In this document: piece after piece, positions 25,901 through 40,900 of the stretch
How the letters are laid out: the number at the start of each line of letters is the position of its first letter
Position numbering within the stretch: position 1 is the stretch's first letter
Source of the DNA: Escherichia coli
Lineage (GTDB): Bacteria > Pseudomonadota > Gammaproteobacteria > Enterobacterales > Enterobacteriaceae
DNA: 64,000 nt
NCBI RefSeq assembly: GCF_003019035.1
Contig: NZ_CP027447.1
Reading direction: 5' to 3' (one strand)
Made by a program: the position numbers

Positions 25901-28900
25901 GGCCGGTCTTGCTCAAGTCGGTAAGTCGATTGGGCAATAGCGAACAACAAGGTCGGTTGTTTGGCTTCTTCGAAACAGGGCGTGGCATTGTCGATACCGT
26001 GGTGGCATTTTCTGCGTTGGCAGTATTTACCTGGTTTGGCAGTGGCTTATTGGGTTTTAAAGCAGGCATCTGGTTCTATTCCCTTATTGTGATTGCCGTA
26101 GGCATTATCATTTTCTTTGTTCTGAATGACAAAGAAGAGGCACCGTCCGTTGAGGTGAAAAAAGAAGACGGAGCATCGAAAAACACCAGTATGACCTCGG
26201 TGCTGAAAGACAAAACTATCTGGCTTATCGCTTTCAACGTCTTCTTCGTTTACGCGGTTTACTGTGGCCTGACATTCTTCATTCCATTCTTGAAAAACAT
26301 CTATCTATTGCCTGTTGCGCTGGTGGGGGCTTACGGCATCATTAACCAATACTGTCTGAAAATGATTGGTGGACCGATTGGTGGCATGATTTCAGATAAG
26401 ATCCTGAAATCGCCGAGTAAATATCTATGCTACACCTTTATCATCAGTACCGCTGCGCTCGTACTGTTGATTATGCTGCCGCACGAAAGTATGCCGGTCT
26501 ATTTAGGGATGGCATGTACGCTGGGCTTTGGCGCGATAGTCTTTACACAGCGAGCCGTATTTTTTGCACCTATCGGCGAAGCAAAAATTGCTGAAAATAA
26601 AACAGGCGCGGCGATGGCGTTGGGTAGCTTTATTGGTTACGCCCCGGCGATGTTCTGCTTCAGTCTGTATGGCTACATTCTGGATTTAAATCCGGGGATT
26701 ATTGGCTACAAAATCGTGTTTGGCATTATGGCCTGCTTCGCATTCTGTGGTGCGGTGGTTTCCGTAATGCTGGTTAAGCGTATTAGCCAACGTAAGAAAG
26801 AGATGCTGGCGGCTGAAGCTTAATTAATGGCCGGATGTGGCTTAATCCGGCCAACGAAAACCGTATCAACCGTAGGCCGGATAAGGCGTTTTCGCCGCAT
26901 CCGGCAGTTTTACATCAGAAGAAATACTTCGTCCCGATACGAATCTGGTTTTGCTCGCGGTGGTACGGCTCTACGTTGCGATCTAACCAGCGCAATTCAA
27001 TATAGGGCAACCAGTGCTCATTAATGCGATAACGGAAGGTGTTAGTGATTTCCCAGTGATGCTTCGTACCATTGCTGCTATTGAAATCATTAATGTTATA
27101 AAAATAATGCGGTTCAAAGGTATATGAGAACTTATCGGTAATAATAAAGTTCCAGTAGTTGCCAATCTCGTAGCTGTCATTATTATCCAGATCACCGTTC
27201 AAATCGGTTGAGCTATAGTTATTATGGTTAAAACGATTACGTACCGTCAGGTTAAACCATGGAGTAAATTTGTAGTTAACATCCAGATAAACAGCACCAC
27301 CCGAACCGATACTCTTATCATTAATTAAGCCACCGGGCTGGATGGTTAATTTATCGGTTGGTTTGAATAACGGATACCAACCTTCGATTTCGTTATATCC
27401 ATGTTTGAGTTCATCTTCTCGCTGAAAGGTGTAGGTATTGGTTAACATAATACCCGCGCCCATATCGAAGTTATAACCCACACGTAGCATAACCTCGCCC
27501 TGATCGGAGGCGAGATTATATGCCTCCCTGTTTTCGACGTATGCGCCAGCAAATACCGAGGCAGAGGTCAGAGAGGATAATAGAATTATTGCATTAATCT
27601 TTTTCATAATAAGTCCATTTTTAAGCGTAGGGAGGCCGCCACCCACCAGGATGGAAATAGCGGCTATTGACATTTATAACGTTACGGAAGCCGTTTTTTC
27701 TTCTGTCGCCATCTCTTTATTTTTGCGTTGGTTAATTTCCTCAATAATCAGTGCAAACCGTTTTTCATTGAGTGTGTAAAAGAATCCCATCGTCAATGCA
27801 GCAATAATTGCCAGTGCACAAGGCCAGATAAAAATGAGCTGACGCAAACCCTGTAATGTCGCATCACTTTGCGCGATGTTGGGAACATAACCTATTTGCG
27901 TCAGCATAATGCCTGGCAAGAAGCCAGCAAGTGCGGCAGAAATTTTACGAAAGAAGGTATAACCGGTATAAACAGAACCTTCGGCACGAATACCGGTTTT
28001 CCATTCACCGTAATCTACGGTATCTGGCACCAGTGCCCAGTTCAGGCTGTTTACAAAGGCCGTGCCAAAAAAGGCGACACAAGAGAACATGACGAAAGTG
28101 AAAGAGTTATTTCCCCAGAAATAATTCAGGATATCACCAACCGCCCACAGCACCATGCCAGCTAAATAAACCTGTTTTTTACCAAAATATTTTACAGTTA
28201 ATGGCACCAGTAATACGCCGACGAGGATGCATCCCATACTGAAGAATCCCATCCACGACAATAAATTAATATCATTTAGCACATACTGGGTGTAATAGAC
28301 CTGAATCGCCAGTTTGATATTAAATGCCGCCAGAGTACACAGGTTAGCAATGCACAATACCAGCAAAGGTGGATTATGAAATATCGCGCAAAATGATTTG
28401 AGAATACTGGCCTTATGTCCGGTTGGCGTGGTGTCCACATAATGCTCTTTGACGCCTCTGTAGCACAGCATCATAAAAATAAAGCCGCCAATGGAGAACA
28501 TCAGTGCCGCACAGGCATAACCGACGGTTGAGTCAGAAAAAAGCGACTGCAACGGAATAAACGCCACGGTACAAATCAATAGCCCTATGGTTGCACCACC
28601 CTGGCGGTAAGCCGCGAGCTGCGCGCGCTCATTGGGGTTTTTGGTAATGGCCGGGATCATCGCACCATACGAGCAGTTCATCAGACTGTATGAAAGTCCA
28701 AACATCATAAACAGTGCGGTGGCAATCGTCGTTTTAACCGGCAAACTAAAGGTGGTGGCGATAAACTGGAGCGTTGCAATTAACGCCGCCGGAACCGCTG
28801 CATATAAAATAAAGGGACGAAATTTGCCTTTAGGCCCAATATTTTTCCGCGAGTCGAGTAAAAATCCGGTGAGCATATCGGTAAATGCGGTAAAAAACTT

Positions 28901-37900: not shown

Positions 37901-40900
37901 TTTCATGAGCCTTACCGAACTAACCGGTAACCCGCGGCACGACCAACTCCTCATGCTGATCGCCGAGCGTGGGTATATGAATATTGATGAGCTGGCAAAT
38001 CTGCTGGATGTCTCCACGCAGACGGTCCGCCGGGATATTCGTAAATTAAGCGAGCAAGGGCTGATCACGCGCCATCACGGTGGCGCGGGTCGGGCCTCCA
38101 GCGTCGTTAATACGGCGTTCGAACAGCGTGAGGTTTCGCAAACTGAAGAGAAAAAAGCGATTGCCGAAGCGGTGGCAGACTATATTCCTGATGGTTCAAC
38201 AATATTTATCACCATCGGTACGACTGTCGAACATGTCGCCCGGGCGTTACTTAACCATAATCATTTGCGGATAATCACCAACAGCCTGCGTGTGGCGCAT
38301 ATTCTTTACCACAACCCGCGCTTTGAAGTGATGGTGCCCGGCGGTACGTTGCGCTCTCATAATAGCGGGATCATTGGCCCTTCAGCGGCGTCCTTTGTGG
38401 CTGATTTTCGTGCTGATTATCTGGTAACAAGCGTTGGGGCGATTGAGAGCGATGGCGCGTTGATGGAGTTTGATGTTAACGAAGCTAACGTGGTGAAAAC
38501 GATGATGGCGCACGCGAGAAATATTCTGCTGGTCGCCGATCACACTAAGTATCATGCTTCGGCGGCGGTTGAAATTGGTAATGTGGCACAGGTCACTGCG
38601 CTCTTTACCGACGAGCTGCCGCCCGCTGCGCTAAAATCACGCTTACAAGACAGCCAAATTGAAATCATCCTTCCCCAGGAAGACGCGTAGAATTTTGTGA
38701 CCGTTGACCTTGCTTCATACCTGACCACATAGCCAAACCCATCCTTTCCCGCTACAGTTAATTCCTTGTGGCGCGAAAGGAGGCAAAAATGCTCTATATC
38801 TTTGATTTAGGTAATGTGATTGTCGATATCGACTTTAACCGTGTGCTGGGAGCCTGGAGCGATTTAACGCGTGTTCCACTGGCTACGCTTAAGAAGAGTT
38901 TCCACATGGGCGAGGCGTTTCATCAGCATGAGCGTGGGGAAATTAGCGACGAAGCGTTCGCAGAGGCGCTGTGTCATGAGATGGCTCTACCGCTAAGCTA
39001 CGAGCAGTTCTCTCACGGCTGGCAGGCGGTGTTTGTCGCGCTGCGCCCGGAAGTGATCGCCATCATGCATAAACTGCGTGAGCAGGGGCATCGCGTGGTG
39101 GTGCTTTCCAATACTAACCGCCTGCATACTACCTTCTGGCCGGAGGAATACTCGGAAATCCGTGATGCTGCTGACCATATCTATCTGTCGCAAGATCTGG
39201 GGATGCGCAAACCTGAAGCACGAATTTATCAGCATGTTTTGCAGGCAGAAGGTTTTTCACCCAGCGATACGGTCTTTTTCGACGATAACGCCGATAATAT
39301 AGAAGCAGCGAATCAGCTAGGCATTACCAGTATTCTGGTGAAAGATAAAACCACCATCCCGGACTATTTCGCGAAGGTGTTATGCTAAAAACCATTCAGG
39401 ACAAAGCCAGGCACCGTACCCGTCCACTATGGGCCTGGCTAAAACTACTCTGGCAACGCATTGATGAGGACAACATGACAACCCTGGCAGGTAACCTTGC
39501 CTATGTGTCGTTGCTCTCATTAGTGCCGCTGGTTGCCGTTGTTTTTGCGCTTTTCGCCGCTTTTCCCATGTTTTCCGACGTCAGCATTCAGTTGCGTCAC
39601 TTTATTTTTGCCAACTTTCTGCCTGCTACTGGCGATGTTATTCAGCGGTATATCGAACAATTTGTTGCCAATTCCAACAAGATGACCGCCGTTGGGGCGT
39701 GCGGGCTGATCGTCACGGCGTTATTGTTGATGTACTCCATCGATAGCGCGTTGAATACCATCTGGCGCAGTAAACGAGCGCGACCAAAAATTTACTCGTT
39801 TGCCGTGTACTGGATGATTTTAACGCTGGGGCCGCTGCTGGCAGGGGCCAGTCTGGCGATCAGTTCCTATTTGCTCTCCCTGCGCTGGGCGAGCGATCTC
39901 AATACTGTCATCGACAACGTGCTGCGTATTTTTCCGCTGCTGTTGTCGTGGATCTCCTTCTGGTTGCTGTACAGCATTGTTCCTACCATCCGCGTACCTA
40001 ATCGCGACGCGATTGTCGGCGCGTTTGTCGCCGCACTCCTGTTCGAAGCAGGAAAGAAAGGTTTCGCGCTTTATATCACCATGTTCCCCTCATATCAGCT
40101 CATTTACGGTGTGCTGGCGGTGATCCCCATTCTCTTTGTCTGGGTCTACTGGACATGGTGTATCGTCTTGCTTGGCGCGGAAATTACTGTCACTCTCGGG
40201 GAATACCGCAAACTAAAGCAAGCAGCTGAACAAGAAGAAGACGAACCATGATTGCATTAATTCAACGCGTAACCCGTGCCAGCGTCACCGTGGAGGGAGA
40301 AGTGACGGGCGAAATTGGCGCGGGACTTTTGGTGTTATTGGGTGTCGAAAAGGATGACGACGAACAGAAAGCAAACCGTCTGTGCGAGCGTGTGCTCGGC
40401 TATCGCATCTTTTGCGATGCCGAAGGCAAGATGAACCTCAACGTGCAACAGGCGGGCGGCAGTGTGCTGGTGGTTTCCCAGTTTACCCTCGCCGCAGATA
40501 CCGAACGGGGGATGCGTCCAAGTTTCTCCAAAGGTGCATCACCGGATCGCGCAGAGGCGTTATATGACTATTTCGTCGAACGCTGCCGTCAGCAAGAGAT
40601 GAACACGCAAACAGGACGCTTCGCTGCCGATATGCAGGTATCGCTGGTCAATGATGGCCCCGTGACATTCTGGTTGCAGGTATGAGCCAGCTTCCAGGGT
40701 TGTCACGGGAAACAAGAGAGAGTATCGCTATGTATCACCTTCGGGTTCCACAAACAGAAGAAGAATTAGAGCGTTACTATCAGTTTCGCTGGGAAATGTT
40801 GCGTAAGCCCCTGCATCAACCGAAAGGTTCGGAACGCGACGCGTGGGATGCGATGGCGCATCACCAGATGGTCGTCGACGAGCAGGGTAATCTGGTGGCG

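Follow-up and report, generated by a model that had tools for sequence, protein, structure and literature searches.

A K-12-type sulfoquinovose catabolic cluster, intact by sequence, in Escherichia coli contig NZ_CP027447.1

The sulfoglycolytic Embden-Meyerhof-Parnas (sulfo-EMP) cluster published for Escherichia coli K-12 comprises ten genes, ompL included (PMC8006165). We analysed a stretch of 64,000 nucleotides of E. coli contig NZ_CP027447.1, hereafter the window, in which 26915-38690 very probably represents a K-12-type "long" sulfo-EMP cluster of ten genes that appears intact by sequence and under purifying selection. According to the K-12 literature, from which the following steps are taken, sulfoquinovose glycosides would cross the outer membrane via OmpL and the inner membrane via a GPH symporter, YihO being the proposed importer. 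YihQ would hydrolyse the glycoside, yielding sulfoquinovose, and YihR would speed the exchange of its anomers. Sulfoquinovose would then be isomerised by YihS to sulfofructose, with sulforhamnose as a side product, phosphorylated by YihV, and split by YihT, as sulfofructose-1-phosphate, into dihydroxyacetone phosphate and sulfolactaldehyde. The latter would be reduced by YihU to 2,3-dihydroxypropanesulfonate (DHPS), which would be excreted, with YihP as the proposed exporter. The repressor CsqR would act by cooperative binding at the yihU/yihV spacer and at its own promoter, and would be released by sulfoquinovose, sulfoquinovosyl glycerol and sulforhamnose.

Four described or related arrangements are the closest to that of the window. 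K-12 MG1655 (b3875-b3884) has the same ten genes in the same order and on the same strands, with equal lengths except for yihR; the window differs from K-12 in the missing yihR codon, in the absence of a ~74-bp element between yihS and yihR, and in rare allele segments of yihQ and ompL. An eleven-gene variant, found in strain C7, O157:H7 strains, E. whittamii and Salmonella diarizonae, has the ten other genes and the control-region repeats in common with the window, whereas it carries a TauE/SafE permease gene between yihR and yihQ where the window has ~135 bp of unrelated sequence. The short yih cassette (B2-type; Nissle 1917, PMC12608037; avian pathogenic E. coli (APEC) E19035 in the present comparison) occupies the same typA-yihX site as the long form and resembles the window in its divergent kinase/reductase promoter region and in homologous genes for a DeoR regulator, a kinase, a reductase and an aldolase. 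In contrast to the window, which has all six of the cluster genes concerned, the short cassette lacks ompL, yihO, yihP, yihQ, yihR and yihS, as well as yihL, yihM and yihN. In APEC E19035 (L004, 3367-11924), an inverted eight-gene cassette replaces the region from yihL to csqR. Besides yihU, its genes code for a DeoR regulator and a kinase, both divergent from yihU, and for an aldolase, two MFS transporters, a zinc alcohol dehydrogenase and an epimerase. In the spacer between kinase and reductase the central conserved block is retained, with only one exact repeat. Finally, loci of Yersinia, Hafnia and Chimaeribacter (L045 5377-8940, L058 5345-8834 and L056) have yihO-yihP-yihQ, yihU, yihV and csqR arranged as in the window. 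In these loci yihS and yihT, which the window keeps, are replaced by genes whose translations, by reading and with no family scan, look like a fucose-isomerase-like protein, a GalM-type epimerase and a class II aldolase.

The ten genes of the window are listed below, with the K-12 C3026 locus (L003) as the reference for gene-by-gene comparison.

26915-27607, minus strand: ompL, KdgM-family outer-membrane porin (NCBIfam NF007434 "porin OmpL", 473 bits; Pfam KdgM)
27674-29077, minus strand: yihO, GPH-family (MFS_2) transporter (TIGR00792 gph, 527 bits; 461/467 residues identical to K-12, gapless)
29120-30505, minus strand: yihP, GPH-family transporter (TIGR00792 gph, 538 bits; 456/461)
30551-32587, minus strand: yihQ, GH31 sulfoquinovosidase (Pfam GH31 domains; 666/678, 98.2%)
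32785-33684, minus strand: yihR, aldose-1-epimerase (sulfoquinovose mutarotase; NF011719, 611 bits; 286/300)
33752-34993, minus strand: yihS, sulfoquinovose-sulfofructose isomerase (Pfam GlcNAc_2-epim, 464 bits; 408/413)
35009-35887, minus strand: yihT, class I sulfofructose-1-phosphate aldolase (Pfam DeoC/LacD; 289/292)
35911-36807, minus strand: yihU, NADH-dependent sulfolactaldehyde reductase (NF012005 equivalog "sulfolactaldehyde 3-reductase", 603 bits; 295/298)
36975-37871, plus strand: yihV, PfkB-family sulfofructose kinase (Pfam PfkB, 237 bits; 296/298)
37905-38690, plus strand: csqR (yihW), DeoR-family repressor (Pfam HTH_DeoR and DeoRC; protein identical to K-12, WP_000059678.1)

The 12.5 kb from 27000 to 39500 match E. 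coli SCU-301 (NZ_CP051751.1, a human rectal isolate) at 100%, and the next-best full-length matches have 98.2% identity. The RefSeq annotation of SCU-301 places ompL and yihO to yihU on the minus strand and yihV and csqR on the plus strand, and thereby agrees in coordinates with the original prediction, made from the sequence alone, of an uninterrupted run from yihO to yihU followed by the divergent yihV and yihW. That prediction gave the cluster as 27674-38690; the genes it named stand, but ompL, the tenth gene of the published cluster, was left out. Its assignments of YihQ to GH31 and of the repressor to the DeoR family are borne out by the NCBIfam and Pfam models and by a full-length match of YihQ to PDB 5AED, "Sulfoquinovosidase" (1601 bits). 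The same gene order is found in 59 loci from Escherichia to Yersinia. Mechanically called reading frames of yihO, yihP, yihR and csqR (the last with GTG) start upstream of the annotated ATG codons, which are common to K-12. For yihR, MG1655 has a longer annotated start that is not in frame here, and therefore ATG 33684 is taken as the true start. Meanwhile, the alignment of 52 loci shows that the conserved start of yihV is the ATG at 36975 and not that at 36969, so that the yihU/yihV spacer ends at 36974.

All ten genes have the K-12 length except yihR, which is one codon shorter, and they contain no internal stop and no frameshift. In the full alignment, the sole coding indel relative to K-12 is a 3-bp in-frame deletion in yihR, and the remaining indels are intergenic. 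Protein identity to K-12 is 93.9% for OmpL, 95.3% for YihR and 98.2-100% for the rest, CsqR being identical. Positions involved in catalysis and sulfonate binding were, apart from D405 and D472 of YihQ and K171 of YihU, taken from published lists (PMC8006165 and PMC10991401). YihQ keeps R301, W304, D405, D472 and Y508, which include the catalytic Asp405 and Asp472 and the Arg301-Trp304-Tyr508 sulfonate pocket. YihS keeps R55, H248, Q362, Q379 and H383 (His248 and His383; the Arg55-Gln362-Gln379 pocket), and YihV keeps D13, K27, S95, N109, R138, G243 and D244 (Asp244; the Lys27-Asn109-Arg138 triad). In addition, YihT keeps A26, K193, S226, S227 and R253, with the Schiff-base Lys193, and YihU keeps R123, K171, N174 and S178, with the Asn174-Ser178-Arg123 pocket. 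We take D405 and D472 of YihQ and K171 of YihU to be functional residues. CsqR keeps the internal start M25 and the ligand residues R75, R150, N153, S176, E193 and K215.

The ratio of nonsynonymous to synonymous substitution rates (dN/dS) relative to K-12 is 0.00-0.08 across the genes of the cluster (0.017 in yihP), while the synonymous divergence (dS) reaches 0.19-0.27 in yihP, yihQ, yihS, yihT and yihV and 0.50 in ompL. The low dN/dS in spite of the high dS indicates that selection has long maintained the genes while their alleles diverged deeply. The largest number of changes is that of YihR, with 13 substitutions and one missing codon (D187). All 14 differences fall in columns that vary among 26 other YihR sequences, several of them restore the majority residue, and 84 of the 84 columns that are invariant in the 26 are kept. 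The family models, the identity to K-12, the kept pockets and the purifying selection thus agree on the sulfo-EMP identity that had been proposed, and the alignment of each reading frame with its K-12 protein bears out the earlier statement that nothing in the reading frames is disrupted.

The two transporters, which had been described as tandem GPH paralogues, are 65% identical over 456 residues and score far above the TIGR00792 cut-off of 231 bits; both also match Pfam MFS_2. The three peptide blocks on which that description was based occur in both proteins, LYLLKFYTD at residue 35 of YihO and 38 of YihP, MNCSYGAM at 133 and 136, and GYVPN at 396 and 402. The tandem pair is present nearly everywhere in the 59 loci, which come from Escherichia, Salmonella, Citrobacter, Enterobacter, Rahnella, Yersinia and others across Enterobacterales, which indicates that the duplication is old and that both copies have been maintained. 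Across genera, YihP (mostly 84-93% identity) is better conserved than YihO (73-86%). Import of sulfoquinovose or its glycosides by YihO and export of DHPS by YihP have been put forward in the literature (PMC8006165, PMC12890257).

The regulation of the cluster was considered in two regions.

36808-36974, no strand: yihU/yihV divergent control region, 34% GC, with putative CsqR operators overlapping promoters mapped in K-12
37833-37878, plus strand: csqR promoter region, inside the 3' end of yihV, conserved in 57 sequences

Genomic SELEX (systematic evolution of ligands by exponential enrichment) in K-12 gave one strong CsqR peak, in the yihU/yihV spacer (PMC8249747), which CsqR binds cooperatively and from which it is released by sulfoquinovose and sulforhamnose in gel shifts (PMC8006165). 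CsqR also binds the yihV/csqR region (PMC12608037). The K-12 promoters of yihU, yihV and csqR have been mapped, with csqR transcription starting at -27/-28 and a CRP site (PMC5816610). In the window, the yihU/yihV spacer is identical to K-12 at 185 of 187 positions, the flanking genes being 95-97% identical, and both differences lie in variable columns. Its core (36863-36943) is almost invariant in 52 enterobacterial loci whose neighbouring proteins are only 71-90% identical. The spacer holds three direct repeats on the same strand: TGTCACTTTTTGT at 36830-36842 (the repeat at 36830 is also written TGTCACTTTTTG), TGTCTGTTTTTG at 36863-36874 and CGTCACTTTTTA at 36911-36922. The exact 13-mer TGTCACTTTTTGT recurs at 37855-37867, where it shares bases with TATAAA, a -10-like hexamer that shortly precedes csqR. 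The degenerate form GTCWSTTTTTR, that is GTC(A/T)(C/G)TTTTT(G/A), starts at 36831, 36864, 36912 and 37856, and in most of the 59 related loci the pattern keeps these distances from yihV. These four direct repeats are probably the CsqR operators, in line with the published target of the repressor. A fifth match to the pattern, at 24271-24281 on the minus strand inside yihL, probably arises by chance.

The second region that had been expected to hold a CsqR-controlled promoter separates yihR from yihQ, and short gaps separate the genes downstream of it.

32588-32784, no strand: yihR-yihQ spacer, 197 bp, 30% GC; the site of tauE in other strains and species
30522-30541, minus strand: stem-loop CCCGTG-GGGAAACT-CACGGG in the yihQ-yihP gap, 60% GC, with no T-run
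29091-29108, minus strand: stem-loop AACGCCC-TGCG-GGGCGTT in the yihP-yihO gap, GC-rich, directly followed by the yihO Shine-Dalgarno sequence, with no T-run

Both spacers are AT-rich, as had been stated, against 50% GC in the whole window. The original prediction presumed CsqR-controlled promoters in both of them; the direct-repeat search found three copies in the yihU/yihV spacer, where conserved repeats and the SELEX peak agree, and neither repeat nor pattern searches found a CsqR-type repeat in 32588-32784, so that only the expectation for the yihU/yihV spacer is supported. The coding strand of the yihQ-yihP and yihP-yihO gaps holds no T-run, and in both gaps the ribosome-binding site follows the stem-loop directly. 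A terminator scan ranked highest a terminator-like site at 29089-29110, on the strand opposite to the genes. Since the stem-loop of the yihP-yihO gap lacks a T-run and is directly followed by a Shine-Dalgarno sequence, it is presumably not a terminator, and yihP and yihO are probably co-transcribed. Only 20-86 bp separate yihS from yihQ, its direct neighbour, in 22 related species, or 397 bp in the degraded locus L055. Given the short gaps, the lack of intrinsic terminators and the direct junction of yihS and yihQ in the 22 species, we infer that transcription from the CsqR-controlled promoters of yihU may read through into yihQ-yihP-yihO-ompL and account for at least part of their expression. 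A generic promoter scan was uninformative (15 sites against 13.3 expected), and an Rfam scan of 24000-42000 at E-values up to 1 found nothing inside the cluster. A sub-threshold naRNA4 match (38.4 bits against a gathering score of 59.5) lies at 26875-26916 on the plus strand, in the yihN-ompL spacer, and has the palindromic look of a REP-type (repetitive extragenic palindromic) sequence.

The yihR-yihQ spacer is of further interest as a site of gene-content polymorphism. In E. whittamii, Salmonella enterica subsp. diarizonae, a Citrobacter and Superficieibacter, ~1 kb at this site codes for a 291-amino-acid TauE/SafE-family membrane protein (site coordinates in compared loci: L066, 6088-7128; L005, 4766-5812; L008, 4760-5832), and E. 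coli C7 carries the same gene, annotated "sulfite exporter TauE/SafE family protein". The gene is present in 1288 of 5426 complete E. coli genomes, O157:H7 strains included, or in about one third of the genomes with the long cluster (1288/3884). In seven other species it lies between yihP and yihQ instead. The spacer of the window is identical to that of K-12, which likewise lacks tauE, at 208 of 218 positions, and a tblastn search of the whole window with the C7 TauE protein gave no significant match. The verdict that nothing is disrupted thus applies to the reading frames, but the cluster is of the K-12 type, without a gene that about a third of the long-cluster E. coli genomes possess. The spacer was also considered as a remnant of tauE left by simple deletion, and this was rejected, because alignment with the tauE-bearing form is confined to its two ends, and the ~135 bp between them are AT-rich sequence of no relation to that form. 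It is a replacement and not a clean deletion, with lineage-specific filler. That the K-12-type cluster is a derived form which lost an organosulfonate permease, with the AT-rich spacer marking the site of the replacement, is a speculation that we regard as rather unlikely. A 2025 survey of the forms of the yih cassette makes no mention of TauE, and in the yih literature searched we found no link between TauE and the E. coli yih genes.

At the level of the population, 3884 of 5425 matching genomes contain 80% or more of the length of the long cluster. Most of the remaining genomes, APEC E19035 among them, match only yihX and yihY. The nucleotide divergence between the window and K-12 is ~4.5% and is distributed as a mosaic, identity ranging from 80 to 99.7% per 300 bp, with segments alternately closest to K-12 or to strain C7 (locally up to 99-100%). 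A rare and strongly divergent segment of yihQ, 31200-31650, has 80-90% identity in 3286 of 3470 genomes; it changes four amino acids and is 86-89% identical to K-12, E. whittamii and Citrobacter alike. The ompL gene is 89.6% identical to that of K-12, with 14 amino acid changes. Its 3' half (26850-27300) has 80-85% identity, next to a yihN of 99%, and thus marks an abrupt recombination boundary in a porin exposed at the cell surface. Among the 59 species loci, no donor closer than 84-92% was found for the divergent segments of yihQ, ompL and yihV. A further difference from K-12 lies between yihS and yihR.

33685-33751, no strand: yihS-yihR spacer, 67 bp, without the ~74-bp repetitive element of K-12

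A short hairpin (33716-33737) occupies the site of this element, at which RNA polymerase binding has been reported in K-12 (PMC5816610). Per genome, the K-12 query has a median of 4 matching places and the query from the window has 1.

The allelic divergence raises the question of whether the cluster could look intact and yet be silent or defective, owing to a subtle missense or regulatory change among the ~4.5% of nucleotide differences, with YihR or the rare segment of yihQ as conceivable sites. The allele is indeed unusual, in that its next full-length match is at 98.2% and yihQ 31200-31650 finds identity of at least 95% in only 56 of 3470 genomes, and YihR combines its 13 substitutions with a missing codon. 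However, nearly all of the changes are synonymous (dN/dS of at most 0.08) and none alters a functional residue, those in YihR are confined to variable positions and in many cases bring back the consensus residue, CsqR is unchanged, and the control region departs from K-12 at two non-conserved positions. We therefore regard a silent cluster as very improbable. Still slightly less probable, in our estimation, is a main role in the use of another sugar. A lactose-linked role has been proposed for yihS, yihT and yihV, since the three genes are induced on lactose and YihW has a role in the response (PMC5816610); however, all the sulfonate-binding pockets that give selectivity are kept in the window, and the corresponding intermediates of glycolysis are not turned over by the K-12 enzymes (PMC8006165). 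Sulfoquinovose catabolism remains by far the favoured role.

A third alternative concerns the expression of the distal genes, for which the yihR-yihQ spacer could hold a second, independent CsqR-controlled promoter driving yihQ-yihP-yihO-ompL. The length and low GC content of the spacer would suit a promoter, its divergence from K-12 (4.6%) is lower than the flanking synonymous dS of ~0.24, the tauE-bearing variant has the same short stretch adjoining yihQ (AAGCCTGTAATAAC, which contains a -10-like TGTAAT), and a yihQ promoter has been predicted in silico (PMC5816610). Yet the spacer holds no copy of the repeat from the two known CsqR sites, the single strong SELEX peak lies at yihU/yihV only (PMC8249747), and a promoter scan came out empty on the coding strand of the spacer. 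Furthermore, its inner part is specific to the K-12 type and unrelated to the sequence in tauE-bearing E. coli, E. whittamii and Salmonella, and in the 22 species the yihS-yihQ gaps (apart from that of the degraded L055) leave no room for a promoter. A second CsqR-controlled promoter thus seems doubtful, though clearly less so than a silent cluster, and read-through from the yihU promoters is preferred.

Several points weigh against the reading of an intact, CsqR-controlled sulfo-EMP cluster and should temper it. The function of the cluster in this strain is deduced from sequence identity, and the roles of YihO in import and of YihP in export are proposals from the literature. The operator boxes, too, are sequence-based candidates. 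The enrichment of GTCWSTTTTTR in the window (5 matches in 64 kb against 0.33 expected, 4 of them in the two regulatory regions) is circular, as the pattern was derived from the copies that it counts, and it is therefore the positional conservation across genera that provides independent support for the repeats. Read-through into yihQ is likewise deduced, and a promoter in the 197-bp spacer is possible, with ATGAGA-17 nt-TGTAAT as a weak candidate found by eye.

Outside the cluster, some features of the window may be mentioned. A transposase gene and a truncated open reading frame follow fabY at 42087-43901, and the alignment with K-12 fails from ~42100. A CopG-family/VapC toxin-antitoxin pair lies between yiiE and fdhE (45034-45650, plus strand). 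Between fdhD and yiiG, a two-gene insertion (52550-56693, plus strand) codes for a 611-amino-acid ATP-binding protein and a 768-amino-acid hypothetical protein; PADLOC gave weak TmtA-like matches to the former and none to the latter. In addition, frvX (59741-60811, minus strand) is an annotated pseudogene with an internal stop.

For E. coli K-12, the gene cluster, the enzymes with their structures, and the repressor have all been described before, and the copy in the window is a faithful, intact allele of that system. Mildly new are the operator repeats and the TauE polymorphism, the latter being a matter of the relatives and not of the window itself. The proposed CsqR repeats would be a sequence-level refinement of a known regulation, backed by conservation across genera. 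The presence or absence of TauE bears on how DHPS leaves the cell: if TauE is the true exporter of DHPS, the export role given to YihP would become doubtful, and both GPH paralogues may be importers of different substrates, namely sulfoquinovose and its glycosides.

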